A DNA stretch of 63,989 nucleotides, counting the filler, from an uncultured bacterium (GTDB lineage Bacteria; CAZSTA01), in assembly GCA_964609495.1 (NCBI GenBank). It is 5 parts of 5 records of this genome, joined end to end, with 100 filler letters (N's around TTAATTAATTAA, not from the genome) between each part and the next. Parts side by side here need not be neighbours in the genome. Positions count along the whole stretch, not along the records: positions 1 to 14,606 come from CAZSTA010000085.1; 4 more parts are not named here. One strand, 5' to 3'. The stretch's first letter is position 1. Every line of letters starts with the position of its first letter. This document shows positions 1 to 59,781 of the stretch, one piece after another. The notes under the pieces are model-generated. The model made no database searches and was not told where the DNA came from. It saw only the letters and a program-made list of their open reading frames with translations. A program made the position numbers and the translations under genes.

Positions 1-222
1 CTCCCACGAGGGGAGAGGGAACACTGAGATTGAACTAAAGCCCTTTAGTTCCCCCCTCCCTTGATGGGAGGGGGTTAGGGGGAGGGTGATAATTAACAAG
101 ATTCCTTGATAGCCTTATTAATTCAGCAAAAACCAAGATGGGAGGGAGTAGGGGAGAGTGGTTTAAAGTGAGTTCAAGACCTAGTCCGATCTCGAATATA
201 TCGGACAAAAATTTTGAAATTA
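1..222 (+). repeat. Family A (BoxC/REP-like) composite palindromic repeat, truncated at window start
   Basis: CTCCCACGAGGGAGAGGGAAC...CCCTCCCTTGATGGGAGGGGGTTAGGGGGAGGGTGAT; about 1-150 matches the reverse complement of 10740-10918, and 170-222 matches 28318-28370 and 38328-38381. Confidence 0.9.
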
Positions 223-276
223 CTTAAAGAGCTAGCAAACTTTACTGAAGTTACTTAGCTTAGAGGAGAAAGGATA

Positions 277-2328
277 GTGCCAAGGAAAGTCATAGGCATC
301 TTAGGAGGAAAGAGCTCGATAGCTACTGCTGATCTGTTTCGAAGGATAGTGGATCTCGATCTAAGCTCCGAATATCAAGATAGCTTGAGGATAATAGTCG
401 ATAATAATCCTGAGCTAACTGACTGCTCTAGGGCGATAATGAGAGGAAGAGAAGATCCCCTTCCTATTTTGAGAGAGGCGATCACAAATCTTAAAAGCTC
501 GGGAGCCGATTTTATAGTTGTTCCCGAAGTTTGCGCGCATCACTATTTGAGACAGATCTCAAACGAGGTTCGCATCCCCATGTTGAATGTTGTTCAAGAG
601 ATCGTCGAGGCTCTAAAAGTAAGGTATCCTCAGATTAATAGAGTGGGGCTATTAGCGACTACCGCTACCTTAAAAGCAGAACTTTTTCAGAAGGTCTGTC
701 AGGAGCTGGATATTAAGCTTATATTTCCCAGCAGAAAAGTGCATAAAGAACTTATTATGAAGGCTATCGAGGGGATTAGAGCTAAGGGGAAATCATTCGC
801 TTTGTTAGAGGGAAAAGAAGCTCTTAAGAAAGCCTGTGTTTATCTGAGGGAGAAGGGAGCAGAAGCGATAATCGCTGGTTGTGCCGAGCTTTCTTTAGCT
901 CTCTCTGCCTCCGATATAGATCTGCCCCTGATAAGCTCCAATAGAGTCTTAGCGCAGGTCGCTCTGGAGTTCGCTCGCTCCTCAGCTCCCCCTGTTCGGA
1001 AGAGGGAAAGGGTCGCTGAAGTATTGGACAAGATGGGAAAAAAGATCGAGGCTAAGCCGAATCTCGCCATTGTCCTTACCGGGGCTTATGGACAGGATAA
1101 TGTCCCAGCCGAGATGTTTAAATGGGAAAAACTTTTCTTAGCGGCGGGATACGAAACTCTTCTCTTGACAGGGGAGAAGTTGCAAACCGATATCGACAAT
1201 TTAGCTTTACCAGAACTATCTTTTAAGAATTCGAAGGTAGGGAAGATATACTTCGCGGCTTTTAATAGGCAATTGAACGAGAGAGATGAGAATAGGTTAT
1301 TAAGCGCGATAGATGATCGAGCTCGAAAGTTGAAGCACAGTCTGATAGATATTATAAAAGATATGGATATCGAGATCATCTGTGTGGAAAACGCGCTTTC
1401 TCTGCCCTTGAATCTCCCCTTGGGTATGGCTTTATGGGAGCTTATAATCGAGCTTGATCTTCCGACTATAGCGCGTCATCACAACTTCTATTGGGAAAAT
1501 AAGTATTTCGAGGATAGCAATGTCGAACGCTTATTGAACGTGGCCTTTCCTCCAGATACGCCCTCTATAGAACACGTAACTGTTAGTCTGGAGGCTAAGC
1601 GATCTTTGAAGGAGAGGAGGGGGATAGAATCTACTTATATCCCGAACGCAATGGACTTCAGTTCCCCTCCCACTTTGGATGATTATAATCGGGATTTCAG
1701 GAACTCCCTCTCCATTCAAGAGGGCGAGATCGTGATAATACAGCCAACTGTTATCTCCGGGGAATTAGGGATTGAGAATTCGATCCCTCTGCTTGCCAGA
1801 TTGAAACGGAATTATGATCTCGATATCGTCTTGATAATAGGTGAAATCTTGAACGATGAGGATAAGAGATATGTCAAGTTCGTCGAGGATTTGGCGAAGG
1901 GCGAAGGTTTGAGAGCGATAATTGCTTCTCAGTATATATCCCCGGAACGACGTTTAGAGAGGGGCAAGAAGGTATATACCTTGACCGATGCTTATGTTAA
2001 CTCCGATCTCATAATATTTCCTAATGGCGATCTCGTATCCTTCAAGCATATCTTACAAGGCATATTAGCTAGGAAACCCCTCTTAGTTGCTCAAGGGAAG
2101 GCTTTAGATGAGGCTATGGGACATCAACTCTCTTTAATAGCCCTTGGAGAGGAGATAGGAAGGGTGGAAAGGAAAATACGCGAGGTTCTGGCTAAGAAGG
2201 AGAAGAGGGAGGGTGTGGTATCAAACAATTTTCAAATGGCTTATCAATACTTCTCCGAGGAGAGGGTGCAGGAGAAGTTAGCCTCGCTTCTGGAAAAGCT
2301 TAAAAGTATGGTTAGGAGAACCGCTTAA
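277..2328 (+). CDS. Fusion: Asp/Glu racemase-family domain + GT4 (MggS-like) glycosyltransferase domain, both with degenerate motifs
   Basis: N-half IGILGG..ATADLF, VGLLATTAT, IIAGCAEL (racemase fold); C-half EMFKW, ENALSLPLNLPLG, RHHNFYWE resemble the mannosylglucosylglycerate synthase-like GT4 family; GGAG RBS before GTG. Confidence 0.75.
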   Translation: MPRKVIGILGGKSSIATADLFRRIVDLDLSSEYQDSLRIIVDNNPELTDCSRAIMRGREDPLPILREAITNLKSSGADFIVVPEVCAHHYLRQISNEVRIPMLNVVQEIVEALKVRYPQINRVGLLATTATLKAELFQKVCQELDIKLIFPSRKVHKELIMKAIEGIRAKGKSFALLEGKEALKKACVYLREKGAEAIIAGCAELSLALSASDIDLPLISSNRVLAQVALEFARSSAPPVRKRERVAEVLDKMGKKIEAKPNLAIVLTGAYGQDNVPAEMFKWEKLFLAAGYETLLLTGEKLQTDIDNLALPELSFKNSKVGKIYFAAFNRQLNERDENRLLSAIDDRARKLKHSLIDIIKDMDIEIICVENALSLPLNLPLGMALWELIIELDLPTIARHHNFYWENKYFEDSNVERLLNVAFPPDTPSIEHVTVSLEAKRSLKERRGIESTYIPNAMDFSSPPTLDDYNRDFRNSLSIQEGEIVIIQPTVISGELGIENSIPLLARLKRNYDLDIVLIIGEILNDEDKRYVKFVEDLAKGEGLRAIIASQYISPERRLERGKKVYTLTDAYVNSDLIIFPNGDLVSFKHILQGILARKPLLVAQGKALDEAMGHQLSLIALGEEIGRVERKIREVLAKKEKREGVVSNNFQMAYQYFSEERVQEKLASLLEKLKSMVRRTA

Positions 2329-3212
2329 TGTATGAAGAGTTATTAACTCGTCTTCACCGAGAATATGAGGAGAAATATGGCTTTGCTCTATTCAAAGTCG
2401 ATATAATTCCTGTTGAGGGGGGGTTAAGATTAACAGGGCAGGTCTTACTCGAAGCTCAGAAGAATAGATTAGAGGAGGAGTTGAGAAAGATCACCCAACT
2501 AAGTATCGAGAACTATATCGAGATTTTAGCTGATCCCGAAGGCAAGAACGAGTTGGGATGGGGAGGAGTCGAGAAGGGGATAGTTGATGTTTGGCGTAAA
2601 CCCGCCTCGATTCGGAAAGGTGGGAAGGAGCTGAATACTCAGCTTATCCCTCAAGATGAGCCATTCAGGATCTTGACTGAGCGGGATAACTGGTATCTAA
2701 TTCAGACGATAGATTTCACTTTGGGTTGGGTGAATAAAGGCAAAGTCCTACTAGATAGAGAAGCTGACTCCTCTTGGGAAAGGACATTTCGAGCGCAGAG
2801 GGGAAGCACGGTAAATTTGGATGGAGATACCTCGAGGTTGATCGAGGTTGCCGAGCGTTACGAGGGAGTGCCTTATTTGTGGGGAGGGACTACTCTTGAC
2901 GGGATCGATTGTTCAGGATTAATTCAGAGGATATATAAGGAAGCTTATGGATTGATTCTGCCTAAGCACTCTTCGCCACAGAGGAAGATGGGCCTCAGGA
3001 TACCTTTAAATGATATAGCTGTCGGAGATATAATCTCACTTACCCTCAAGGAGAGGAGGATATCCCACGTGGGATTATACTTGGGGACTGATAGGGTGAT
3101 TCACGCTTGTGTGCGCAAGGGGAGGGTGATAATAGAGGATTTCGGGGAATTGCTCGATTTCTATATATTTGCTGGGGCGAGGAGAATAGCCCTATTTAAG
3201 GATAGAAAATAG
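2328..3212 (+). CDS. NlpC/P60 (C40) cysteine peptidase with N-terminal SH3-like region (YkfC-like)
   Basis: PYLWGGTTLDGIDCSGL, HVGLY and VIHA give an intact Cys-His-His triad; TAATG stop/start overlap with the upstream gene. Confidence 0.9.
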   Translation: MYEELLTRLHREYEEKYGFALFKVDIIPVEGGLRLTGQVLLEAQKNRLEEELRKITQLSIENYIEILADPEGKNELGWGGVEKGIVDVWRKPASIRKGGKELNTQLIPQDEPFRILTERDNWYLIQTIDFTLGWVNKGKVLLDREADSSWERTFRAQRGSTVNLDGDTSRLIEVAERYEGVPYLWGGTTLDGIDCSGLIQRIYKEAYGLILPKHSSPQRKMGLRIPLNDIAVGDIISLTLKERRISHVGLYLGTDRVIHACVRKGRVIIEDFGELLDFYIFAGARRIALFKDRK

Positions 3213-3266
3213 AAGCTGGTGTATTTTCCGATCACCGATTTTGATTTTCCAAATTGAGAGGAATTT

Positions 3267-4748
3267 ATGAATTTACTAGATCTAGAGAAACTGAGGGATA
3301 AGAAAGTTCATATAGTTGGTCTCTCCAGCGTGGAGGGCAATGCGGTGGCTAACTTTCTGATCGAGTATGGTTTCACCAATTTAGTAGCTCATGATTTCAA
3401 GAGACGCGATGAATTTGAGCGAAGCTTTAAGTTAGTTCACGTGGGGATGTCCAAGAAGGATAGAGAGATAGCCTTCGCGAGGTTAAAGCACTTGCCGATC
3501 AAGATAAACTATAAGGACATCTATCTCGAAGGTATTATGCAAGCAGACGCCATCTTTGCTACGCAGGCTTGGTTTATATATGATTGTAACCTACCTAAGC
3601 TGGAGGAGGCTAAGAAGTCAGGGATACCATTTTACACTATGACCGAACTCTATTTCGATCTAGCCCCTTGCCCGATAATAGCGGTAACTGGAACGAATGG
3701 GAAATCCACCACGGCTAAGATGATAAGTGAGATAATGTTCGCTAGTCCCTTCAAGACATATTTTGCTGGTAACGATAGGCACAGCGTTCAGGTCTTAGAT
3801 AAGCTGGAGGAGATGAGGTCGGAGGATTTCCTCATCCTAGAGGTCAGTAATCGCCAGCTTAGGGAGTTAGAGAAGAGTCCTCATATCGCAGTAATAACTA
3901 ATGTCTATCCGAATCACTTAGATGAGCATACTTCTTTTGAGGATTATATAGAAACTAAAGAGCGTCTTATAAGGTATCAGGGTGAGGATGACTTTGCAGT
4001 GCTTAACTATGATAATGAGATCACGCGAGGTTTTATCGAAAGATGCTCCTCGCAGGTATTTCCTTTTAGTAGAAAGGAGATTCTCAAGCAGGGAGCTTTT
4101 ATAAAAGATGGATATATCATGGTTAGAATAGGAGAGGAAGAGACTGAGATATGCTCTCTCTCCGATCTGGGAGTGAGGGGCGAGCATAATCTGGAGAACG
4201 CTTTAGCCGCGGTTATGGCGGCCTCTCTTGTCGGCGTGGAGGCTGAGATTATAAGCTCTACCCTACGGAAGTTTCGAGGATTGAAGCATCGCCTTCAACT
4301 TGTATTGAGAGTGAAGGGAGTTGAATATTACGATGATCTCAATAGTACTACTCCTCAGGCGGCTATAGTCGCTCTTCGTTGCTTCAACTCTCCTGTGATC
4401 TTAATAGCCGGCGGAGATGATAAGGATTTGGATTATAACGAGCTGGGCAGGATAATCGTAGATAGAGCTAAGCTCCTGCTTCTTCTCCCAGGCAAAGGAA
4501 CTGAGAAACTAGAGAGAGAGGTAAGTCGCTGGAAATCTCGTTTGGAAGTGGAAAACCCAATTATCGAACATTGTGAGAGCTTGGAGGAAGCTGTCAAATT
4601 AGCTCACATTTCTGCTCAATCTGGGGATATAGTTCTTCTATCTCCAGCCTGCCCTTACTTCTTCCGAATGTTCTATCTATCTGATGAGGGAGGCAATAGG
4701 GGTTTCAAATCGCTAGTTAAGGAGATAGCGCTTGGTAAGAAACGATAG
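3267..4748 (+). CDS. murD: MurD-family Mur ligase (divergent paralog)
   Basis: AVTGTNGKSTT P-loop, LEVS, NHLDEH, GEHNLENALAA, HRLQ, LIAGGDDK, GDIVLLSPAC. Confidence 0.8.
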   Translation: MNLLDLEKLRDKKVHIVGLSSVEGNAVANFLIEYGFTNLVAHDFKRRDEFERSFKLVHVGMSKKDREIAFARLKHLPIKINYKDIYLEGIMQADAIFATQAWFIYDCNLPKLEEAKKSGIPFYTMTELYFDLAPCPIIAVTGTNGKSTTAKMISEIMFASPFKTYFAGNDRHSVQVLDKLEEMRSEDFLILEVSNRQLRELEKSPHIAVITNVYPNHLDEHTSFEDYIETKERLIRYQGEDDFAVLNYDNEITRGFIERCSSQVFPFSRKEILKQGAFIKDGYIMVRIGEEETEICSLSDLGVRGEHNLENALAAVMAASLVGVEAEIISSTLRKFRGLKHRLQLVLRVKGVEYYDDLNSTTPQAAIVALRCFNSPVILIAGGDDKDLDYNELGRIIVDRAKLLLLLPGKGTEKLEREVSRWKSRLEVENPIIEHCESLEEAVKLAHISAQSGDIVLLSPACPYFFRMFYLSDEGGNRGFKSLVKEIALGKKR

Positions 4749-4774
4749 ATAATGTCTGCTATCTTAAGATAACT

Positions 4775-4927
4775 CTACTTCTCTTCCTCTTCAAAGACTT
4801 CTAGAATAGGTGGATCCTTGCTTATCACCTCTAACTCATCGCCACAATTGGGACATTCTATTATCTCACCCACCTCTAAAGGATCGGGAAGTGATATCTC
4901 GCATCCACATCTTGGGCACTCATACAT
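4775..4927 (-). CDS. LysW-like small zinc-ribbon protein (50 aa, not in ORF track)
   Basis: Manual translation MYECPRCGCEISLPDPLEVGEIIECPNCGDELEVISKDPPILEVFEEEEK*; two CxxC motifs, GGAGG RBS and a consensus promoter upstream. Confidence 0.85.
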   Translation of the reverse strand: MYECPRCGCEISLPDPLEVGEIIECPNCGDELEVISKDPPILEVFEEEEK

Positions 4928-4972
4928 ATATATTTTACCTCCTTGCTTTGAGATCGAGATGATCTATAATAG

Positions 4973-5001
4973 ATTATAAGATAAGAATAGGGATTTGTCA
5001 A
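4973..5001 (-). promoter_or_regulatory. Sigma70-type promoter for LysW-like gene
   Basis: Minus strand TTGACA-17 nt-TATAAT, perfect consensus. Confidence 0.8.
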
Positions 5002-5047
5002 GATTAATAGATATTATATCAGCAAACTAAAATAGGGAGATGATTAA

Positions 5048-6304
5048 ATGATGACCTCAAGGGAGAGAGTCAGAAAGGTGATCGATCACGAAGTTCCAGA
5101 TAAAGTTCCCCTTGACTTTGGGGGGATTGGTCTAACTAGTATCTCAGCGAGCGCTTATGCTCAATTGAGAAAAGCTCTTGGACTTCCCCATAAGAGGGTG
5201 AAGGTCGTGGATACCTTTCAGATGTTGGGGGAAGTCGAGCCAGAAGTTGGGGAAATGCTCGGGGTCGATACCACTGGTATCGGGTTAAGATCTCCGAATG
5301 AGAAGTGGAGGGAGTGGGAGCTATTTGATGGCACAGAGGTCCTGGTCCGCGAGAGCTTTAATCCAGTTGTGGACGAGAACGGAGATCTTCTGCTATATCC
5401 TGGAGGAGACACCTCGGGGCAACCAAGTATGCGGATGCCAAAGGGGGGCTACTATTTCGATGCGATCGTCAGACAAAAGCCGATAGATGAAGATAATCTC
5501 GATCCAAGAGAATGGCTCGAAGGTCAACTTTTTATCTATCCAGAAGAGTTGCTTCGCCATATTGAAGATAGGGTAACGGATTTATTTAATAATACCTCGC
5601 TCTCTATCATTGGTTTCTCCACCCACAGCAGCTTTGGAGATGTAGCGGCGGTGCCTGGGATGAATCTTAAAGATCCGAAGGGGATCCGTGATCCTAAGGA
5701 GTGGTATATAGCCCATATAACTCATCCAGAGTATATCAGGGGTATCTTCGAGTTACAATGCGAGGCATCCTTAAAGAATCTGAAGCTTTTCCGTCAAGCG
5801 GTGGGCGATAAGATCGATGTTATTATAATAAGCGGCACTGATTTCGGCTCGCAGAATGGGCCATTCATCTCGCCAGATATGTATCGGGATCTCTATATGC
5901 CTTTCCACAAGAGGATAAATGACTGGATACACGAGAATACGAATTGGAAGACGTTCTATCATAGCTGTGGCTCTGTGGTAGATTTCCTTGACGACTTCGT
6001 CGAAGCAGGAGTTGATATTCTCAATCCCGTGCAATGCTCCGCCGCCGGGATGGATCCGACCTTCCTCAAGGAGAACTATGGAGATAAACTTGTCTTCTGG
6101 GGTGGTGGGATTGATACCCAGAAGACTCTACCATTTGGCACTCCTGAGGAGATAAGGCAACAGGTGAGGGAAAGGATGAGAATATTTGGTAAGGGCGGTG
6201 GATTCGTCTTCGCCGCGATTCACAATATCCAGCAAAAAACACCTCCCGAGAATTTGAAAGCTCTTTTTGATGCGGTCGAGGAATTTCGCACGTTAGATGA
6301 ATAA
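5048..6304 (+). CDS. Uroporphyrinogen decarboxylase-family protein (methylcobamide methyltransferase-like)
   Basis: MTSRERV, PDKVPLDFG, GTDFGSQNGPFISP, FYHSCG, FWGGGIDTQKTLPFGTPEE, HNIQ. Confidence 0.85.
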   Translation: MMTSRERVRKVIDHEVPDKVPLDFGGIGLTSISASAYAQLRKALGLPHKRVKVVDTFQMLGEVEPEVGEMLGVDTTGIGLRSPNEKWREWELFDGTEVLVRESFNPVVDENGDLLLYPGGDTSGQPSMRMPKGGYYFDAIVRQKPIDEDNLDPREWLEGQLFIYPEELLRHIEDRVTDLFNNTSLSIIGFSTHSSFGDVAAVPGMNLKDPKGIRDPKEWYIAHITHPEYIRGIFELQCEASLKNLKLFRQAVGDKIDVIIISGTDFGSQNGPFISPDMYRDLYMPFHKRINDWIHENTNWKTFYHSCGSVVDFLDDFVEAGVDILNPVQCSAAGMDPTFLKENYGDKLVFWGGGIDTQKTLPFGTPEEIRQQVRERMRIFGKGGGFVFAAIHNIQQKTPPENLKALFDAVEEFRTLDE

Positions 6305-6905
6305 GGAAAGAGTCTTAGTAGTTCGTAAAGATATATTATGCAGACTAGGGTATTTTCAGGGAGTATTAACTGAAGATATAGAGCGTTATTATAGGGAGAT
6401 ATTGAGAAGTTATATCTTCAGAGATAGGAGCGAGGTTGAAGAAGACCCTAGTTTCAAGCAGATCATCCCCTATATACTACTATTTTATCGGGATAGAGAT
6501 AGCGATTATTTCTTCTTAACGAAGAGGAGAGATGATTGTGCGGAGAGACGTCTCAGCTCAAGATACTCCCTGGGCATAGGAGGACACATTAACGATTATG
6601 ATCTGGAGGATACAGGAGATATAATTCGGAGGGGGATGTTTCGCGAGCTTGAGGAGGAGATAGAATTAGACCTCGGCGACATTATCTCAAGTAGGCTTGT
6701 GGGAATGATAAACGATGATTCTAACCTTGTAGGGAAGGTTCACTTAGGTTTGGTCTATAAGATCGAGACTAGAAATAGAGAAGTTAGGGTAAGATCTGAA
6801 TTAGAGGAGGGATTATTTGTTAAGAGGGACGATTTGATCGATTATTATGAGGGTATGGAAGGGTGGTCGCAGTTGGTCTATAAGAGATATATTGCTGGGG
6901 AGTGA
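6297..6905 (+). CDS. NUDIX-superfamily phosphoesterase (COG4112/YmaB-like)
   Basis: EEDPSFKQIIPY, SLGIGGHIN, RELEEE, GMINDD..VGKVHLG, EGWSQ. Confidence 0.85.
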   Translation: MNKERVLVVRKDILCRLGYFQGVLTEDIERYYREILRSYIFRDRSEVEEDPSFKQIIPYILLFYRDRDSDYFFLTKRRDDCAERRLSSRYSLGIGGHINDYDLEDTGDIIRRGMFRELEEEIELDLGDIISSRLVGMINDDSNLVGKVHLGLVYKIETRNREVRVRSELEEGLFVKRDDLIDYYEGMEGWSQLVYKRYIAGE

Positions 6906-6973
6906 AGTTGATAAGGAGAAACCGATATCGACCTTGTAAGCATGTAGAATATCGTGCTAGCAGATTTGGATTT

Positions 6974-7124
6974 CCTTAAATCACCCTCCCGTCAAGGGAG
7001 AGGAGCTAAAGAGATCGAGCTTATCTCGATGTTCCCTAAAAGGTAACTTTTTTGCTTCAAATAGAACTCATGGTTAAAAAAGTTACCTTTTTCCCCTCGT
7101 GGGAGAGGGTTAGGGTGAGGGGGA
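6974..7124 (-). repeat. Family A repeat carrying a nested family B element (7038-7092)
   Basis: Reverse complement of 38170-38325; GGGAAC/GGGG core interrupted by AAAAGGTAACTTTT...AAAAGTTACCTTTT. Confidence 0.9.
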
Positions 7125-7227
7125 GAATTATATTCCCCAGCACAAACAAAGTTTACATGCTTCGATCGACCTTTGATTCGATTTGAGCTATTTTTCGGGT
7201 ATCATCAACAAGGGGAAGAGAGATGAG

Positions 7228-8229
7228 ATGAATAAGCTAACTACCTTGGCCAGGATCGGCCTAAATTATAAATTGGCTCGACCGATATGCGATTATCGTC
7301 CTATCCGCCTTTGGATAGAGCCAACCAATGTTTGCAATTTGAGATGTGTAATGTGTCCTAATAGTTCGATCCCCTCTATAAAAAGGGGATTTATGGATCT
7401 CGAGCTCTTTAAAAAGATAGTGGATGAGGTGGCAGGATTCGCTACTAATGTCAATCTCCATCATCGGGGCGAGTCCCTTATGCATCCCGATATTATCGAG
7501 ATGATCGCCTATACGAAGTCCAAGGGGATCGAAAGCAGGCTCCATACCAATGCTAACTTGATGGATAGGGATATGTCCGAAGCTATATTAGAAGCGGGAT
7601 TAGATATGATATCATTCTCCTTCGATGGATATGATAAGGAGACCTACGAGAGCATAAGAATTAGGGGCAACTTCGAAAAGACGGTCAGCAATATATTAAC
7701 CTTTCTAGAGTTGAAGGAGAAGATGAGAAAGAATACCTATACTATATTCGAAACGATAGAATTTGAGACTCCTGATGAGGAACAGCTGGCCAAGAGACGG
7801 GAGTTTAGGCGACAATTCGAGGGACTCCCCTTAGATAAATTCGTGGTGAAGAAGCCTCATAACTGGGCAGGTAGAATGGAGATAAAAGGGATGTCGCTTG
7901 AAAAACAGAAACGGAAGTTCTCTCCTTGCACCCTGATCTGGTATTCTCAGACCATATTTTGGGATGGGACAGTCGTTCCCTGTCCTCAAGATTTCTTCGG
8001 AGAATATCCTGTAGGGGATGTCAATAACTCCACTTTAAGCGAGATATGGAATGGGGAGAGGATAGTCGAGTTGAGGAAGAAGATGAATATCAGGGATTAT
8101 AAGACCGTTAATCCCTGCGTTGATTGTGATAGGCTTTGGAAGAGGAAGCTCGCGGGTATCCCAGTGCAGAATTTGAAATCGTTCTTTAGAGAGAATATAT
8201 TAGGTTTTAATAAGTTATTGACGAAATGA
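7228..8229 (+). CDS. Radical SAM protein with SPASM/twitch domain
   Basis: IEPTNVCNLRCVMCP (CxxxCxxC); C-terminal PCTLIW..DGTVVPCPQD..G...PCVDC. Confidence 0.9.
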   Translation: MNKLTTLARIGLNYKLARPICDYRPIRLWIEPTNVCNLRCVMCPNSSIPSIKRGFMDLELFKKIVDEVAGFATNVNLHHRGESLMHPDIIEMIAYTKSKGIESRLHTNANLMDRDMSEAILEAGLDMISFSFDGYDKETYESIRIRGNFEKTVSNILTFLELKEKMRKNTYTIFETIEFETPDEEQLAKRREFRRQFEGLPLDKFVVKKPHNWAGRMEIKGMSLEKQKRKFSPCTLIWYSQTIFWDGTVVPCPQDFFGEYPVGDVNNSTLSEIWNGERIVELRKKMNIRDYKTVNPCVDCDRLWKRKLAGIPVQNLKSFFRENILGFNKLLTK

Positions 8230-14606: not shown

Positions 14607-14706
14607 NNNNNNNNNNNNNNNNNNNNNNNNNNNNNNNNNNNNNNNNNNNNTTAATTAATTAANNNNNNNNNNNNNNNNNNNNNNNNNNNNNNNNNNNNNN
14701 NNNNNN
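14607..14706. other. Artificial contig linker
   Basis: 44 N + TTAATTAATTAA (stops in all six frames) + 44 N. Confidence 0.97.
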
Positions 14707-29174: not shown

Positions 29175-29274
29175 NNNNNNNNNNNNNNNNNNNNNNNNNN
29201 NNNNNNNNNNNNNNNNNNTTAATTAATTAANNNNNNNNNNNNNNNNNNNNNNNNNNNNNNNNNNNNNNNNNNNN
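29175..29274. other. Artificial contig linker
   Basis: N44-TTAATTAATTAA-N44. Confidence 0.97.
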
Positions 29275-29518: not shown

Positions 29519-30106
29519 ATGATAGAGGAGAGAATTACTCAAAAAAATTTCAAATTGATGAGAACTCTATTGACGGTAGGAATAATATTCGCCTTAACTC
29601 TATTGATCATCTTCATAATTCATCAAAGTAAAGAGCGGAAGATCGAGAAGATTGAAGACTATCCCCAGATAGAATCGACCTTGAAAGGTAGCGAGATCTT
29701 GATCTGGAGCAAAGGGAGAAAGCTGGGAGCCCTGTATTCTTCATCCGCTGAGATGGATTTCGACACTCAGGTAACCACTTTGGATAATATAAAGGATGGA
29801 GTGATCTTAGATAACAAAGGAGAACCTGCTCTATCCCTTAAGGCTGATAAAGGATATTATTATGGAAATACCGAAGATGCGACGATGGAGGGAAGCGTCG
29901 AACTTAAGGATATTAAAGAAGGAACGACTTTAAATACCGATAAGTTAGAGTGGAAAGCCAAAGATGAGAAAGTATTAGTTCCTGGGAAGTTGAAGATAAC
30001 GGATAAAGACTATGCCCTGACTGGCGATTCTATGAAATCGGATAGCAAGATGGAGAATATAGAAGTAGAGGGAAGTGTAGAGGCTACCATAATTTTGAGC
30101 GATTGA
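29519..30106 (+). CDS. LptC-like periplasmic beta-jellyroll protein
   Basis: Single N-terminal TM, then LKADKGYY, MEGSVEL, LNTDKLEW, LTGDSMKSD beta-strand repeats. Confidence 0.7.
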   Translation: MIEERITQKNFKLMRTLLTVGIIFALTLLIIFIIHQSKERKIEKIEDYPQIESTLKGSEILIWSKGRKLGALYSSSAEMDFDTQVTTLDNIKDGVILDNKGEPALSLKADKGYYYGNTEDATMEGSVELKDIKEGTTLNTDKLEWKAKDEKVLVPGKLKITDKDYALTGDSMKSDSKMENIEVEGSVEATIILSD

Positions 30107-33862: not shown

Positions 33863-33921
33863 TTAGGTAAGTATTGATATGGAAAGCAGAAACTCAAGAA
33901 AAGGAGAAAAAGAGAAGATTA

Positions 33922-36900
33922 ATGAAAAACAGAAGAAGTAGGATAGTAATCGGTTTATTAATTCTCTCCCTAATTTTGACCCTCTCCAGCCTGACCTGGG
34001 CTCGCCCTCAAGAGGGTGCAGAAGAGGTTTCCGATAATTTCGCTAAAAGTAGTTTTGAATTTATCTCAGAAGGCAGGACTCCTCGTCCTCTACCCATCAA
34101 TTTACCAAAACAATATTTCCATATCGTCTCTGACGAACCCTTTAATACTATAGTTGATGGTCCTATGAACGCCTTAGTAGTAGAAATAGACGATGCAAGT
34201 GATGATCAGGCAGTTAATAGAGCTATCAAGGATGCCCTTTGGAGGGCTAAAGGAACTCTCGATCCAGATATAGCCAGAGATGATATGATTGATATAATCG
34301 TGATGCTTATGGAGAAGGGCAAGCTACTCCTCCCCGATCTCGAGATGGCTAGAATGGGAATGAAGGCGCTAGGGGATCCAGAGAACGAAATCCATCTGGT
34401 CTTCTTAGATTGGGAGCCTGCGGATGAGGATGCTTGGTATGTCTTCTTCTATGGCCCAGATCACGAGATCGGCGGTGATGGATTAGGGATATATCCTCTT
34501 ATGAAGAAGATATATGGATCTCCCGGCTTCGATATCACGGTAACTGTCATCAGAGATAACGATATGCCCCCGGGAGTAGCCGCCTATACGATCCCCGCCC
34601 GCAATGAGGTCCATATGCCCGATTTCGAGAAGATGCAGGAGTGGGGATATACCCTCGATCAATTCAGGCAAGTTCTAGTTCACGAGTTAATCCATGATTT
34701 TCACGATGATCTGGTCTTTGCGATGGATGCTTGGGAGGAGGGTTTCACCGAAGGGGCTTCGGTGATGGCCATGAATCTCTATAAATATAGAGATGATCCC
34801 AATACTCTCGAGACCCTTCATTTTGGCTCTTATGATTCTTGGAATCAACCTGGAATAGGAGGATGTTTCCGCTTCAGCTACTTCGGTATAGATCGTTTGG
34901 CAAGGGAGAGATACGATCAATCCGCCGCCGCTTGGCAGAAGGTTGTATTGGGGTATCCTAACTTCTGGAAGAAATTCAATGCTCAATATTATCAAGATGC
35001 CGCTACCGCTCCTTATCTTCCGGGTGATACTCCCGCTCTGAAGAAGATCGCGGCTAATTATGCCCCTATCGTAGAGGGGCTAGCTTTCTACGAATGGTAT
35101 GGAAGGCAATATATCTTGAATACCAGCCCTCCCCCCAACTTTACTGATAGGATATTCATCAACAACTTACCTCAACCTCTCGATTCCCCCTCCTCCTTGC
35201 CAACTCCAATCGAGTGCCTACCTGAAGGAGAGCAGGGATTAAGTGTTGAGCTATTCTGCTGGTGGACTTATGATCAATACGAGATCGGTAATGGGGGAAC
35301 TGGAACTCTGACCTTTACCGATGCCGCGGGAGGGGAAATTGGGAAGGATACGATGGATTTCATAAGTGGTAATAATGTGATCGCCGCGGGAGGAACGACC
35401 GATTCTAATTGTGGATTCTATAATAGACGTTTTTATGCTATACCTGAGGGATTAGATCCTCAACGAATAAAGATCGATTTAGATGTTATGACCGAGTTCG
35501 ACACCGAGCTAGCGACCTCCGTCTATTATGAGCATAAAGTTTATGAAAACAAAGATGCAGGTGTATACGGCTGTATAGTTGGAGAAGACGGAGGAGAGGT
35601 GACGGTCTTCGCGGACACTTCCGCGACCGCTACTTATACAGCAGAGGTCTCTAAGGGAGTCTTCGAGCTTCCTGACACCCTTATGATAGATAAGCCCCAG
35701 AAGTTGAATATAACCTATGCCCTTCCCGATGGGAATACAACCTCTTGGAAGAGAAATACCGGTTATGAATACTATCGACTCCAGGTATGGCCTCAGGGGT
35801 TATCTGCTATCCTTCAAATCCTGGGCTATCCAGAGATAAGCGATGGATATATCGATGATCAGGGAAACTTTGTTGAGGGAGATGGAGATTTCTCCTCTGG
35901 TGACGTAGTTCGCGTCAACTTCAAACTAACGAATGTTGGAACAGCCGATGCTCAAGGAGTAGTTATAGACTTCTCCGAGGTTGATAAGAATCTATATCCT
36001 ATGGGACATATCGAGGTAGGGGATTTTCCAGTTAACGCGATAGGGGAAGCTACGGTATATTTCATTATCGAATACAGCGCCCCCGATAAATATACGTTGC
36101 CGATAAAGATAAAGGCTACCGATGTTTTGAGCAGAGAGTTCTGCTTAGTTGACACCTCCGTGGTAATCACCGATAAGACTCCTCCTATTCCCACTGTGGT
36201 TACCACTGATCCTAAGTTCGTTCCTGTAGGAAGTTCGGGAACGATAACGGTGGAGGGATTGATAGATGGCTCTGGAGTCGCTCTGGTAAAGGCGATACTC
36301 GAAGATCCAACCGGGGTCAATCCAGATGTGGAAATAGTATTAACAGAGAGCGCAACAGCTCAAGGTGGTGTCTTCACGGGTAGCTTTACTCCCCCAGTTG
36401 AGGGCAACTGGGTTGTCGATATCAGCACCAAGGATGGAGTCGGAAACAAGGGGAACTTCTCCGACATGGCAGGAATGAGCAGTCGCGAACTTCAAGATAG
36501 TGCTGATCTATTCCTCATCCTCCCACCAGAGACTTATGATATCGCCCTTGATGCGGTTGCAGATGTCCGAGATTACTACCAGGATGCGCTAAAGGCTAAT
36601 TCGTTCGATTACGAGGTATGGGATAGCTGGTTCCGAGGGAATATGGACATAGATGTTTGGCAAGGCAAAGAGTATAGGGTAACGATCTGGGTTGCCCCTG
36701 TTCCTGGAGCCACCTCCTTATGGGATCCATCCTTAGTCGATGGGCTTAAAGATTATATGAGCAAAGGTGGTCGTCTCTTCATCACTGGACAGGATATCGG
36801 TTGGGCCGCCTATGAAGGACATATAGATGCGGAATTTTATGAAAAGTTCCTCTCCGCCAAGTTCATTGAGGATTCGAGTAGCGACTTTTGCCTCGTGGGG

Positions 36901-38136
36901 ACTGATATCATAGGCGATATTCCGCTTACGATCGAGGGTGGAGATGGGGCAGATAATCAAGAGTATCCGAGCGTGATCGATACCGTTGATCCAGCCAGGG
37001 ACATCCTGAGCTATGCCACTCAAGGAGGGATCGGAGCGCTTCGAGTCGATAGGGGATGGTGGAAGACGGTCTATCTAGCCTTCGGTTACGAGGCTATAGA
37101 TAACGCGACCGATAGAAACCTCGTTATGAAGAAGATCATCGATTGGCTATTAGCAGTCAACTACGATGTGGGGATCGATCTGGTAGCGACCGACCCCTAT
37201 CCCTTTGCAGTCAATACCAGTCCTGATATTCTGGTGACCGTATCCAATCAGGGCGATACGAGAGAAGAGACCGACCTCAAAATTCGAGTTTATGCCGATA
37301 ACTCCCCAGTAGGAGATGAACAGACCATAGCTGAGTTGAAACCGCATGAGAGCAAAGTTCTGACCTTCACTGGCTGGAAAGCAGGTAATACTAGTAAAAA
37401 GGTTACCCTTAAGGCTCTCATCACCAGTCCACCAGTCGAAGGGGAGGAGGATCTTGTTGATAACGAGGTTATCCTCGAGGTTCAGGCTGTATCCACCGAT
37501 ACAGTGCCTCCGGTGATCACCAGAGCGATGGTCAACCCCAACATTTTCACTCCAGATAAGTATGGAACTAGGTTCACCACTCTCTCCTTTTCGCTGTCCG
37601 AACCTAGCTTGGTCACTGTAGGAATTTATGATAAATCGGAAAATTTGGTTAAGATTCTGGCGGATAAGGAGGCAGTCGAGAAGGGATCCTACTCGACTAC
37701 CTGGGATGGTGCGAGCGATCAGGGTCAGATCGTTGCTGAGGGGGTATATACCATCAAAATCGAGGCTCAGGATATCCTGGGCAATCAGTCCAACCCGATT
37801 CAAATCGAGGTGGAAGTGGTAAGCGGGGCCATAAAGATAGTTAACCTCCATCCCTCCCCGAACCCCTATAATCCCGATAGGGGCGCCTTGAAGATTATAT
37901 ACACTCTGACGGTCGGAGGACACGATATAGAGGTTAGGATATACAATACCGCCGGAGAGTTGATCCGAGAGCTATCTGAGATAGGACAGCCTTACGGAGA
38001 TAACTATATCGAGTGGGATGGCACTGATGAGGATGGAGAGACGGTGCTAAACGGACTCTACATCTTCCAAATCAGGGCGACCGATGTGGATAACAACACC
38101 GCCTCCAAGATCGAGACGATCGTAGTTATAAAGTAG
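33922..38136 (+). CDS. Large secreted gluzincin-type metalloprotease with CARDB/Ig domains and two C-terminal FlgD-Ig domains
   Basis: Signal peptide; HELIH...WEEGFTE; NPNIFTP..WDGASDQGQIVAEGVY and PSPNPYNP..WDGTDEDGETVLNGLYIF. Confidence 0.8.
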   Translation: MKNRRSRIVIGLLILSLILTLSSLTWARPQEGAEEVSDNFAKSSFEFISEGRTPRPLPINLPKQYFHIVSDEPFNTIVDGPMNALVVEIDDASDDQAVNRAIKDALWRAKGTLDPDIARDDMIDIIVMLMEKGKLLLPDLEMARMGMKALGDPENEIHLVFLDWEPADEDAWYVFFYGPDHEIGGDGLGIYPLMKKIYGSPGFDITVTVIRDNDMPPGVAAYTIPARNEVHMPDFEKMQEWGYTLDQFRQVLVHELIHDFHDDLVFAMDAWEEGFTEGASVMAMNLYKYRDDPNTLETLHFGSYDSWNQPGIGGCFRFSYFGIDRLARERYDQSAAAWQKVVLGYPNFWKKFNAQYYQDAATAPYLPGDTPALKKIAANYAPIVEGLAFYEWYGRQYILNTSPPPNFTDRIFINNLPQPLDSPSSLPTPIECLPEGEQGLSVELFCWWTYDQYEIGNGGTGTLTFTDAAGGEIGKDTMDFISGNNVIAAGGTTDSNCGFYNRRFYAIPEGLDPQRIKIDLDVMTEFDTELATSVYYEHKVYENKDAGVYGCIVGEDGGEVTVFADTSATATYTAEVSKGVFELPDTLMIDKPQKLNITYALPDGNTTSWKRNTGYEYYRLQVWPQGLSAILQILGYPEISDGYIDDQGNFVEGDGDFSSGDVVRVNFKLTNVGTADAQGVVIDFSEVDKNLYPMGHIEVGDFPVNAIGEATVYFIIEYSAPDKYTLPIKIKATDVLSREFCLVDTSVVITDKTPPIPTVVTTDPKFVPVGSSGTITVEGLIDGSGVALVKAILEDPTGVNPDVEIVLTESATAQGGVFTGSFTPPVEGNWVVDISTKDGVGNKGNFSDMAGMSSRELQDSADLFLILPPETYDIALDAVADVRDYYQDALKANSFDYEVWDSWFRGNMDIDVWQGKEYRVTIWVAPVPGATSLWDPSLVDGLKDYMSKGGRLFITGQDIGWAAYEGHIDAEFYEKFLSAKFIEDSSSDFCLVGTDIIGDIPLTIEGGDGADNQEYPSVIDTVDPARDILSYATQGGIGALRVDRGWWKTVYLAFGYEAIDNATDRNLVMKKIIDWLLAVNYDVGIDLVATDPYPFAVNTSPDILVTVSNQGDTREETDLKIRVYADNSPVGDEQTIAELKPHESKVLTFTGWKAGNTSKKVTLKALITSPPVEGEEDLVDNEVILEVQAVSTDTVPPVITRAMVNPNIFTPDKYGTRFTTLSFSLSEPSLVTVGIYDKSENLVKILADKEAVEKGSYSTTWDGASDQGQIVAEGVYTIKIEAQDILGNQSNPIQIEVEVVSGAIKIVNLHPSPNPYNPDRGALKIIYTLTVGGHDIEVRIYNTAGELIRELSEIGQPYGDNYIEWDGTDEDGETVLNGLYIFQIRATDVDNNTASKIETIVVIK

Positions 38137-38405: not shown

Positions 38406-39275
38406 ATGACGAAGCTCGTTAAGATCTCGCTGGTGGGAATTTTATGGTTATTTCTTCTGATGCAAACCTCGAACGCGGTGGAGGAGGGAGCTTTCGCTCG
38501 CATCGGGGTGGGAGCTAGACCTCTAGGTATGGGAGGAGCCTTCGTCGCGGTAGCTGATGATGCCAATTCCGTATATTGGAATCCTGCTGGCTTAACCTCC
38601 CTGGAGGGTATGGAGTTCACCAGTATGTATTCTCAGCAGTTAGGAATCATTGATTACAACTTCTTAGCCTTTGCTTCCCCCTTCGAAAATATTGGGAATT
38701 TTGGGATAAGTTGGATAGGTTTAAGTGCAGATACGATCTACAGTAGTGGAGCGGGAACCTACAGCGAGAACACCATCGCTATATCCTATGGNNNNNNNNN
38801 NGGACGAGAGGTAATACGCAATCTCTCCGTTGGTGGCAACTTGAAGTTTCTCTCAGTCTCAGCAACAAAAACGAGTTCGGGTTTTGGCTTAGATATAGGT
38901 GCACAGTATAGAGCAATGGACAAACTCGAAGTGGGACTTATGCTCGTCGATCCCATCTCAACTATAAAATGGGAGGAATCGGGAACGAGTGAGAGTCTAA
39001 AGAGCTTATATATCTTAGGAGCGGCTTACGAGGTTATAGATGGTCTAACCCTAGCTTGCGATATAGAGGATCTCGACCTCGCTAAGCTTCATCTAGGAGC
39101 CGAATATTGGTACTTCTATCCCCAATTGGGAAGCCTGGGATTAAGAGCTGGCAGTGATAGAGGTAACCTAGCGGTAGGGGCTAGCTTGAGGATCGAGAAT
39201 TTCGACTTCGATTATGCCTTTATGTCCCACGATATAGGGAACTCTCATCGCCTCTCTGCCACTGCTCGCTGGTGA
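38406..39275 (+). CDS. PorV/PorQ (UPF0164)-family outer-membrane beta-barrel
   Basis: IGVGARPLGMGGAFVAVADDANSVYWNPAGL; FGLDIG, FDYAF, HRLS; C-terminal W; in-frame 10-N scaffold gap. Confidence 0.85.
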   Translation: MTKLVKISLVGILWLFLLMQTSNAVEEGAFARIGVGARPLGMGGAFVAVADDANSVYWNPAGLTSLEGMEFTSMYSQQLGIIDYNFLAFASPFENIGNFGISWIGLSADTIYSSGAGTYSENTIAISYXXXXGREVIRNLSVGGNLKFLSVSATKTSSGFGLDIGAQYRAMDKLEVGLMLVDPISTIKWEESGTSESLKSLYILGAAYEVIDGLTLACDIEDLDLAKLHLGAEYWYFYPQLGSLGLRAGSDRGNLAVGASLRIENFDFDYAFMSHDIGNSHRLSATARW

Positions 39276-43378: not shown

Positions 43379-43478
43379 NNNNNNNNNNNNNNNNNNNNNN
43401 NNNNNNNNNNNNNNNNNNNNNNTTAATTAATTAANNNNNNNNNNNNNNNNNNNNNNNNNNNNNNNNNNNNNNNNNNNN
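43379..43478. other. Artificial contig linker
   Basis: N44-TTAATTAATTAA-N44. Confidence 0.97.
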
Positions 43479-57444: not shown

Positions 57445-57544
57445 NNNNNNNNNNNNNNNNNNNNNNNNNNNNNNNNNNNNNNNNNNNNTTAATTAATTAA
57501 NNNNNNNNNNNNNNNNNNNNNNNNNNNNNNNNNNNNNNNNNNNN
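57445..57544. other. Artificial contig linker
   Basis: N44-TTAATTAATTAA-N44. Confidence 0.97.
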
Positions 57545-58741: not shown

Positions 58742-59144
58742 TTATTTAATTTTTCCTTCAGTGAAGCTAAGGATCTCCTCAGCATAGTTGTAACACTCTT
58801 CGGCTAGGTTTTCATCATAGAAGCTATGAGGATATCCAGAGGCTAAACCACTGGGATATCTGGTTTGAATATAATGTGAATCTAGCTTCTTTCCAATGTT
58901 GAAGAGATGNNNNNNNNNNATGTTCAGGGATAGCTACAAAGTCTCCGACTCTCTCCAGGAGGTTAACGATCATATTTTCTCTAAGCAGAAGATTTTGAGA
59001 GCTGAGGTAGGCTTTTAACGATTTCTCAGCGGCTTGTTGGGATTGAAAACAGCTCCATTCATAATTTCCAGCCTTCAGGCTATCCTTGGCGGCTTTGAGA
59101 TCCCATCTCGCTTGCTCCAGCCAATCTTTATACCTACTAGCCAA
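58742..59144 (-). CDS. HEPN domain protein (frame broken only by a 10-N gap)
   Basis: DWLEQARWDL, WSCFQSQQAAEKSLKA; after the gap HLFNIGKKLDSHYIQTRYPSG...IK*; gap flanks overlap by ATG. Confidence 0.85.
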
Positions 59145-59147
59145 TTC

Positions 59148-59781
59148 TTATCTCTCCTTCATCCTCTCGCTTACATAATTCATTAGCCCTCCCGCGGCGA
59201 TCAACTTCTGCATAAATTCGGGAAAAGGAGCGGCTTTATATACCTCGTTCTTCGTGATATTCTTGATCTCACCGATCGTCGCGTCTATCTCCACTTCGTC
59301 TCCCTCCTCGATTCTTTGGGCAGCCTCCGAACTCTCGAAGATCGGCAGACCGATATTGATCGCATTGCGAAAGAATATGCGCGCGAAACTGCGAGCGATC
59401 ACCGCGCTGATGCCGGACGCCTTTATCGCTATCGGCGCGTGCTCGCGCGAACTGCCGCAGCCGAAGTTCTCGCCCGCGACGATGATGNNNNNNNNNNATC
59501 GCATTGCGATAGAAGATCCGCGCAAATGAGGGAGCGATAACCGCGGAGATGATTCCTTTGAGAGCGATCGGGGCATGCTCGCGGGAGGATCCACATCCGA
59601 AGTTCCTATCCGCTACGATTATATCAGCCTTATTCACCTTAGCCACGAAATCGCTTCTGATGTCCTCTAGGCAATGCTTCGCTAACTCCGCTGGATCAGA
59701 GGTATTCAGATAGCGCGCGGCAATTATCTCATCCGTATTAACGTTCTCTCCAAACTTCCAAGCTTTTCCCTTAAACTTCAT
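59148..59781 (-). CDS. leuD: 3-isopropylmalate dehydratase small subunit (assembled as two overlapping variant halves across a gap)
   Basis: [20 protein letters not shown], SFARIFxRNA, GGLM. Confidence 0.9.

Follow-up and report, generated by a model that had tools for sequence, protein, structure and literature searches.

A MurD-family ligase encoded with an NlpC/P60 peptidase in uncultured bacteria: a candidate non-canonical step at position 2 of the stem peptide

The MurD step of cell-wall synthesis is regarded as essential and uniform, and the enzyme as a drug target. We describe here a three-gene locus in which a MurD-family ligase is encoded with an NlpC/P60 peptidase and with a fusion of an aspartate-racemase-like domain to a domain of glycosyltransferase (GT) fold, near the start of a window (the whole stretch of DNA analyzed) of 63,989 nucleotides, filler included, from an uncultured bacterium (GTDB CAZSTA01, assembly GCA_964609495.1). 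Several described systems invite comparison. The endopeptidase gene ykfC lies in an operon with the recycling genes ykfA, ykfB, and ykfD; glutathionylspermidine synthetase/amidase joins, in one protein, an amidase of papain-like type and an ATP-dependent amide ligase with an ATP-grasp-like fold; and mycothiol synthesis follows the logic of a GT4 enzyme, a phosphatase, a ligase, and an acetyltransferase. Nearest to the present case is MurD2/MurL of Xanthomonas (PMC8788868, PMC5808125), where a MurD-like ligase with an altered Glu pocket is accompanied by accessory genes and MurL is credited with no known domain or model. What we report is a whole branch of MurD with a rebuilt pocket, tied to a cytoplasmic peptidase and usually also to a pyridoxal phosphate (PLP) enzyme and an ATP-grasp ligase, whose members are routinely annotated as ordinary MurD in uncultured phyla. 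The peptidase–ligase pairing may mark an undescribed way to build or salvage the cell-wall peptide. If the branch adds a residue other than D-Glu, or couples ligation to salvage, the genomes of uncultured phyla would have to be read differently for their cell-wall chemistry, and there would be a second alternative early peptidoglycan pathway after MurD2/MurL. No description of the cassette was found in the literature searched, the scope of which excluded most subscription journals and all supplements.

With canonical MurD, the window ligase shares the three-domain organization of a Mur ligase, the P-loop and catalytic motifs, a score above the family cut-off, and relatives in the slot of murD within dcw (the cluster of division and cell-wall genes). 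It differs in belonging to a separate clade, in being paired with a peptidase, in an N-domain of another type (VGxSxxEG, HDF, and [TS]QxW instead of SPG), and in its pocket, where N216, N359, P463, Y464, and F465 stand for D182, K348, A414, S415, and L416 of Escherichia coli MurD, S415 being a residue that we take to belong to the D-Glu pocket. According to PMC8788868, D182, K348, A414, and L416 are residues near D-Glu in the E. coli enzyme, and MurD2 replaces them by Glu, Arg, Pro, and Phe. The window ligase shares two of these four changes (the A414P and L416F equivalents), but the MurD2 stereospecificity pair Glu197/Arg358 reads Asn/Asn, so that the marks of L-Glu specificity given there are lacking; moreover, the cassette partners are NlpC/P60, a PLP enzyme, and ATP-grasp rather than MurL, and the taxa differ from those listed in the paper.

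The reading that we favor, with rather modest confidence, is that the locus encodes a non-canonical MurD-type ligase acting at position 2 of the stem peptide together with a gamma-D-glutamyl-type peptidase, and that the form found in the window is reduced and detached from the dcw cluster. The ligase would activate the L-Ala carboxylate of UDP-N-acetylmuramoyl-L-alanine (UDP-MurNAc-L-Ala) with ATP and then join the second residue, which would be D-Glu or a close derivative of it (we consider the two about equally likely), seated in the rebuilt pocket without the canonical Lys. The peptidase would cut gamma-D-glutamyl-type bonds of cytoplasmic peptides, either supplying the ligase substrate by salvage or editing it.

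Peptidase and ligase as the conserved unit

Metagenomes scanned with a C-terminal alignment specific to the clade yielded 22 loci, 18 of them with a cassette-type ligase. (A contig scan with the full-length ligase alignment was dominated by a generic P-loop pattern; it left 80 loci, among them the cassette-type L001 and L002 and 20 examined others that are canonical.) In all 13 metagenome loci with upstream DNA, an NlpC/P60 peptidase gene is directly upstream of the ligase or fused to it. A threonine-synthase-like PLP enzyme (PALP) follows immediately in 17 of the 18 loci, an ATP-grasp gene comes next in 11, and a PF01177-like racemase occurs in none. Neighbors were called with Pfam on our own open reading frames (ORFs) for 16 loci, in agreement with hidden Markov models (HMMs) built from cassette proteins, a scan that is partly circular for the loci that supplied the models. 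Among the best 120 homologs of the window ligase, 7 are peptidase–ligase fusions with the peptidase N-terminal, matching the gene order of the window. The conserved unit is the pair of a peptidase and a distinct-branch MurD-family ligase, not the trio of racemase–GT fusion, peptidase, and ligase. The first-pass annotation had proposed a linkage of all three genes, and this is not supported, given the lack of any other full-length fusion among 8000 candidates and of a PF01177-like racemase in any of 21 other cassette loci; the functional link that it drew between peptidase and ligase is upheld by the adjacency and the fusions. As for the remaining partners, the PLP enzyme bears a distant likeness to threonine synthase (E 6e-15), and the ATP-grasp protein has no informative solved relative.

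The peptidase consists of an N-terminal alpha/beta domain, a putative SH3-like domain, and an NlpC/P60 domain (PF00877 at amino acids [aa] 180–271, E 8e-22; the SH3_3 and SH3_4 matches fall below their cut-offs). Cassette peptidases are orthologous along their whole length, and all eight compared keep the catalytic Cys-His-His (DCSG, SHVG, IHAC). Read from the sequence, the N-terminus is helical, carries charged residues, and has no hydrophobic leader, which makes this a predicted cytoplasmic enzyme. In Foldseek comparisons of the predicted model (pLDDT 88), the best whole-length matches in the PDB, structures of the YkfC/dipeptidyl-peptidase VI (DPP VI) and cyanobacterial gamma-D-glutamyl-L-diamino-acid endopeptidase types, were 3NPF, 4R0K, and 3PVQ (TMq 0.54–0.55, root mean square deviation ~8 Å), followed by 2HBW and 2EVR (TMq 0.53) and by 3H41. 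The predicted architecture resembles that of the cytoplasmic YkfC/DPP VI endopeptidases, in which SH3-like domains precede NlpC/P60, as the "YkfC-type" label of the first-pass annotation would have it. The window peptidase differs from them in the extra N-terminal domain, in a low identity (only 17–23%, at TMq 0.53–0.55), and in its genetic partner, a Mur ligase (adjacent or fused) instead of recycling genes.

The locus closest to that of the window (L114) carries D-Glu_cyclase (PF07286) and GLUCM-like_C (PF14336) genes directly upstream of the peptidase gene, at 6299–8045, and we count these D-glutamate-cyclase-like genes in favor of the proposed step at position 2. An Opp-like ABC transporter is encoded on the opposite strand of the same locus.

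A different chemistry is suggested by one subclade of soil metagenomes. In L110 (4908–13090), a co-directional seven-gene operon encodes GNAT (Acetyltransf_6), MshA-like GT4, HAD phosphatase, P60, ligase, PALP, and ATP-grasp, and similar operons are found in L101, L103, L105, L106, L107, and L111; the MshA-like GT4 scores 393–400 bits on TIGR03449 against a cut-off of 462.5. From these operons one might suppose that outside the Patescibacteria, the window included, the cassette serves as a synthetase/amidase couple acting on some small metabolite with an amide link, for instance a glyco-amino-acid conjugate; the ligase would form the amide bond and the NlpC/P60 enzyme would break it. The detachment of the window cassette from dcw genes and the remodeled N-domain of its ligase fit this idea, as does the kinship of the window GT-fold domain, which lies in a mannosylglucosylglycerate-synthase-like GT4 family with GH63 and GH125 fusions and has BshA, sucrose-phosphate synthase, and MshA as its best folds. 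However, the MshA/HAD/GNAT association is limited to a single subclade of 7 rows, the window GT domain is without the donor-binding and EX7E residues, and the cassette ligases form one clade that includes sole MurDs embedded in dcw clusters. The parallels, moreover, are analogies only: mycothiol on the one hand and, on the other, the glutathionylspermidine enzyme, which pairs an amidase with an amide ligase but has a ligase fold unrelated to Mur. We judge a small-metabolite couple to be unlikely.

The ligase clade, the murD slot, and the pocket

The window ligase matches Mur_ligase_M and Mur_ligase_C and passes the TIGR01087 murD cut-off (265.8 bits against 211.95), with a match that spans only aa 110–470. 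Across a 20-sequence alignment of its clade, the ATP-binding and catalytic positions are invariant, namely the TGTNGKST P-loop, E192 (the Mg-binding Glu), H217, K231 (the carbamylated-Lys position), H307/N308/N311, H341/R342, and D356/D357, the correspondence of which to E. coli residue numbers we take for granted. The first-pass annotation was therefore right that these motifs are retained, and right also that two others are altered: alignment to solved MurDs gives DLNST for DSK[AS]T and SPACPYFFRMF for SPACAS-xDMF. Both changes were rechecked in a motif table of 75 sequences, which splits canonical MurDs from what we call the long-N superfamily. Canonical enzymes have SPG in the N-domain loop, [PE]DHLDR at the His motif, [ND]DSK[AGS]TN at the Lys motif, and SP[AG]C[AS]SFD[MQ]F..Y..R at the C-terminal motif; long-N enzymes have [TSG]Q[AGNV]W in the loop, with VGxSxxEG and HDF, mostly PNHLDE at the His motif, and variable Lys and C-terminal motifs. 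The window ligase reads TQAW, PNHLDE, DDLNSTTP, and SPACPYFF.

A tree of 90 ligase rows (IQ-TREE, quick search; the midpoint root serves the drawing only) separates 23 canonical MurDs from a long-N clade of 67 rows (support 100), within which a Patescibacteria dcw-type clade of 10 rows (support 100) stands beside a cassette-type clade of 57 rows (SH-aLRT 94). All 30 rows of known cassette context fall inside the latter, which amounts to one label change on the tree, and none of 500 shuffles was as low. The window ligase sits within it in a 26-row DDLN[SA]T subclade (SH-aLRT 99), with P0002, P0003, and L114 as its nearest neighbors at ~60% identity. The family is large (7887 of 7999 scored candidates matched in a homolog search with the window ligase), and Chloroflexota and Dormiibacterota are the commonest taxa of the near clusters in the protein atlas. 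In a sample of the WOR-3 phylum, no cassette-type ligase was found; 188 of 201 genomes matched, all with canonical-like proteins at no more than 41% identity and with matches starting near aa 107. In a sample of Actinomycetota, 0 of 301 genomes matched at E<=1e-85.

A tie to the stem peptide comes from the Patescibacteria, where the cassette is found in the place of murD, between mraY and ftsW, in three genomes. L137 has the order MraY-P60-ligase-PALP-ATP-grasp-FtsW-MurG; in L131 the P60-ligase-PALP-ATP-grasp core is preceded by MraY and followed by FtsW-MurG-MurC-MurB; and in L133, on the opposite strand, the core is flanked by MraY and FtsW-MurG. The link between this ligase family and the stem peptide, as first proposed, is borne out by this arrangement. 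In two genomes of Patescibacteria and Gracilibacteria with the four-gene cassette (G205 and G206), no MurD-type protein other than the cassette ligases passes the TIGR01087 cut-off, and in four further genomes (G257, G282, G306, and G225) the cassette ligase is the only TIGR01087-type match at E<=1e-35. The Mur_ligase_M proteins number exactly four in each of G257 and G306, and the G257 cassette is on a contig of 1.14 Mb, about the size of the whole assembly. MraY and MurA are present in all six of these cassette genomes. Since the cassette fills the mraY–ftsW slot and brings the only MurD-type enzyme found there, the addition of residue 2 to UDP-MurNAc-L-Ala is most likely still the task of its ligase. 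Between mraY and the cassette, L131 (2568–6095) and L133 (7193–9937) also encode a 377- to 387-aa protein of no named family and an Amidohydro_3 protein, to which L131 adds a Cu-oxidase_4 protein, of a family that is YfiH/PgeF-like.

A wider sample of 101 Patescibacteria genomes, 81 of them with a match, points the same way, in that, by our reading, no genome lists both a full-length canonical and a long-N-type match. By the same reading, the sole match begins at HMM position 31–141 in 22 genomes; 16 of these were sorted, into 7 cassette-type, 6 dcw-type long-N, 2 canonical-like, and 1 unclear.

The same genomes bear on a further explanation of the pair, a two-component amidotransferase like MurT/GatD, in which ammonia or an amine, freed by the hydrolase from a gamma-glutamyl amide, would be passed by the ligase to an ATP-activated carboxylate. 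Tight coupling of hydrolase and ligase, with occasional fusion, would suit such a complex, and so would the loss from the ligase of the residues by which an incoming amino acid is held at its carboxylates. We nevertheless find it very improbable: 3 of 10 Patescibacteria cassettes lack the peptidase, genomes of the sole-MurD type would be left with no enzyme adding residue 2, and we know of no NlpC/P60 glutaminase.

What the pocket change means for the substrate is less simple than was first supposed. The first-pass annotation took the altered pocket as a sign of a residue other than D-Glu, and while the motif changes are real, that conclusion is weakened by the dcw-type long-N MurDs of Patescibacteria, which read EDSS[AS]CNP and so are without the Lys but retain the canonical C-terminal motif. 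A PF01177 racemase gene lies beside such a MurD in three of five genomes tested. (In L125, L127, and L132, from G272, G219, and G247, the EDSS[AS]CNP MurD with the adjoining racemase is the only MurD-type match of its genome.) Conversely, some peptidase-fused cassette ligases, such as P0094 and P0108, retain the Lys. Loss of the Lys alone is therefore no evidence for a substrate other than D-Glu. The pocket residues vary strongly between cassette subclades (LN, TQ, SA, LF, LK, VK), and in view of this breadth such a substrate is possible. The cassette could accordingly be read as an alternative position-2 route proper, of a kind with MurD2/MurL, in which the ligase would add a non-canonical or alpha-substituted D-Glu derivative, made by the PLP enzyme with ATP-grasp or, in the window, supplied by way of the racemase-like domain, with the peptidase editing or salvaging; if so, the pocket variation would reflect lineage-specific residues or substituents. 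We regard this more specific route as possible but doubtful.

Several points weigh against the step that we favor, a position-2 ligase which joins D-Glu or a close derivative and works with a gamma-D-glutamyl-type peptidase. The acyl substrate could itself differ, since the N-domain has [TS]Q[AGN]W where canonical enzymes have SPG, and the window ligase has no PF21799 (MurD-like_N) match at E<=0.01, whereas the dcw MurD of L113, used as a control, does match. The cassette lies outside any dcw context in the window and outside any dcw cluster in G205 and G206, and in three of ten Patescibacteria cassette loci (L130, L135, and L136) the peptidase is not adjacent. The soil operons, with their GNAT, MshA-like GT4, and HAD genes, look like small-molecule chemistry, and both domains of the window fusion deviate at catalytic positions. 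Finally, among the Patescibacteria genomes compared, no link was found between the cassette and loss of the known sources of D-Glu; racemase and D-amino-acid aminotransferase are missing also from several genomes with canonical MurD, and Aminotran_4 was detected in 5 of the 21 genomes checked for such sources. The notion that the cassette replaces MurI was tried and set aside, as the PF01177 racemase occurs in 2 of 6 cassette, 1 of 5 canonical-MurD, and 4 of 5 dcw-long-N genomes, with no clean pattern. Searches for Ddl and Alr gave no informative pattern across the genomes compared.

The racemase–GT-fold fusion

The first gene of the window locus encodes an aspartate-racemase-like domain (aa 4–233) joined by a linker to a domain of GT-B/GT4 fold (~aa 266–683). 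The racemase part scores well above its family cut-offs (PF01177 at aa 13–228, 88.8 bits against 31; TIGR00035, 150 bits against 93.1), and its best PDB match is the aspartate racemase of Pyrococcus horikoshii, 2DX7/1JFL (E 7e-40), to which it aligns over its full length. It keeps the second catalytic Cys motif, GC[AT]E (GCAE in the window), but at the first it has PEVCAH, where all ten homologs have PCN[TS]AH or PCNSVD: a Glu stands at the Cys position, and a Cys follows two residues later. It differs from the solved enzymes also in the fusion to a GT-B domain.

The GT half is similarly divergent. At aa 273–669 its only match was to NF041101 (152 bits against a cut-off of 640), and no Pfam GT family matched at E<=0.01. 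Its homologs, drawn from a family of 749 representatives at E<=0.001, score 179–240 bits on NF041101, and all 13 tested have a match of Pfam Glycos_transf_1 type. They are similar to mannosylglucosylglycerate synthase, and fusions to GH63 or GH125 hydrolases occur among them; in P0141, P0181, and P0206 the extra part is an MGH1-like hydrolase of GH63, an alpha-mannosidase of GH125, or a TIR domain. The predicted model (pLDDT 91.9) has BshA, sucrose-phosphate synthase, and MshA as its top PDB folds (TMq 0.60–0.66). Of the residues that are nearly invariant in the family, R238, R242, K243, E332, G333, G335, and E340 are V, E, L, L, V, F, and Q in the window, so that the losses include the R/RK residues, which we take to bind the donor phosphate, and both Glu of EX7E. 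The label "GT4" in the first-pass annotation accordingly stands for the predicted GT-B fold and fails for the catalytic motifs, and its picture of an active racemase and an active glycosyltransferase was not supported in either half. Judged from these substitutions, the GT domain probably has a role in binding or regulation rather than in glycosyl transfer. It has no significant similarity to the MshA-like GT4 of the soil operons.

Other full-length fusions of this kind were not found: of 8000 scored candidates, 11 matched, all over the racemase part only. We infer that the fusion is a lineage-specific addition. The PLP-enzyme and ATP-grasp genes are absent from the window cassette, and the racemase-like half may replace the former as supplier of a D-amino acid.

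These results also bear on the function first proposed for the locus, in which the peptidase cuts the stem peptide, the racemase acts on the released or a free amino acid, and a non-standard residue, for example D-Asp, is religated at position 2 by the ligase. Translational coupling of the racemase–GT and peptidase genes, an aspartate racemase as the nearest relative with a solved structure for the racemase domain, and a pocket without the Lys, Asp, and Ser of canonical MurD are all consistent with such a cycle. Yet among the candidates scored the fusion is found on the window contig only, its first catalytic Cys is displaced, the Lys is lost also in dcw-type sole MurDs adjoining racemase genes, and we know of no peptidoglycan with D-Asp at position 2. 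We consider the cycle improbable.

Locus layout and the remainder of the window

The three genes are co-directional, and the stop of the first overlaps the start of the second, as first described; their coordinates and those of other features are collected below.

Features of the window (positions count along the whole stretch of 63,989 nucleotides)
Feature	Position	Strand	Basis
Gene 1, racemase–GT fusion protein, 683 aa	277..2328	+	ORF call
TAATG, gene 1 stop overlapping gene 2 start (translational coupling)	2326..2330	+	sequence reading
Gene 2, peptidase, 294 aa	2328..3212	+	ORF call
GAGAGG, ribosome-binding-like site, 5 nt ahead of the ligase ATG (3267)	3256..3261	+	sequence reading
Gene 3, cassette-type MurD-family ligase, 493 aa	3267..4748	+	ORF call
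C-rich arm	54..67		
G-rich direct repeats	63..84; 137..158		
URO-D/MtaA-like gene, 202-aa gene, radical SAM/SPASM gene	5048..8229		
ValRS (contig 1)	8263..10725		
LptC-like gene	29519..30106		
1420-aa protein with FlgD_ig, CARDB, and CHU_C domains	33874..38136		
LeuRS (contig 5)	61086..63635		
Spacers, each two 44-N runs	14607..14706; 29175..29274; 43379..43478; 57445..57544		
Additional 10-N runs	38792..38801; 58910..58919; 59488..59497		

The window is put together from five contigs of a bin, with N runs in between, and arguments from neighborhood are therefore valid within one contig only. The first-pass remark that no dcw-cluster genes lie nearby holds for the 14.6-kb contig at 1–14606 (CAZSTA010000085.1) and does not extend to the wider neighborhood; on that contig there are no dcw genes, and none were seen on the other four.

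Scans for promoters and terminators gave no signal above background, and Rfam returned zero matches in 1–5100 at E<=1, hence no riboswitch clue. The 276 nt that separate the contig end from gene 1 contain two G-rich direct repeats (GATGGGAGGG..GGGGAG), 82% alike and with no Rfam match, and a C-rich arm partly complementary to them. After the ligase, a gap of 300 nt precedes a URO-D/MtaA-like gene, a gene for a 202-aa protein that has no family match and appears Nudix-box-like by eye, and a radical SAM/SPASM gene, none of which recurs beside other cassettes.

As to the host, the ValRS of contig 1 has 36% identity to the ValRS of two WOR-3-phylum genomes, whereas the LeuRS of contig 5 has 58% identity to that of the same genomes and 54% to that of an Actinobacteria metagenome-assembled genome. 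Either the ValRS is of a different type or the contigs are of different origin. The 1420-aa protein, with its CHU_C type IX secretion sorting domain, is encoded on the same contig as the LptC-like gene, and the two together suggest a diderm of the FCB kind.

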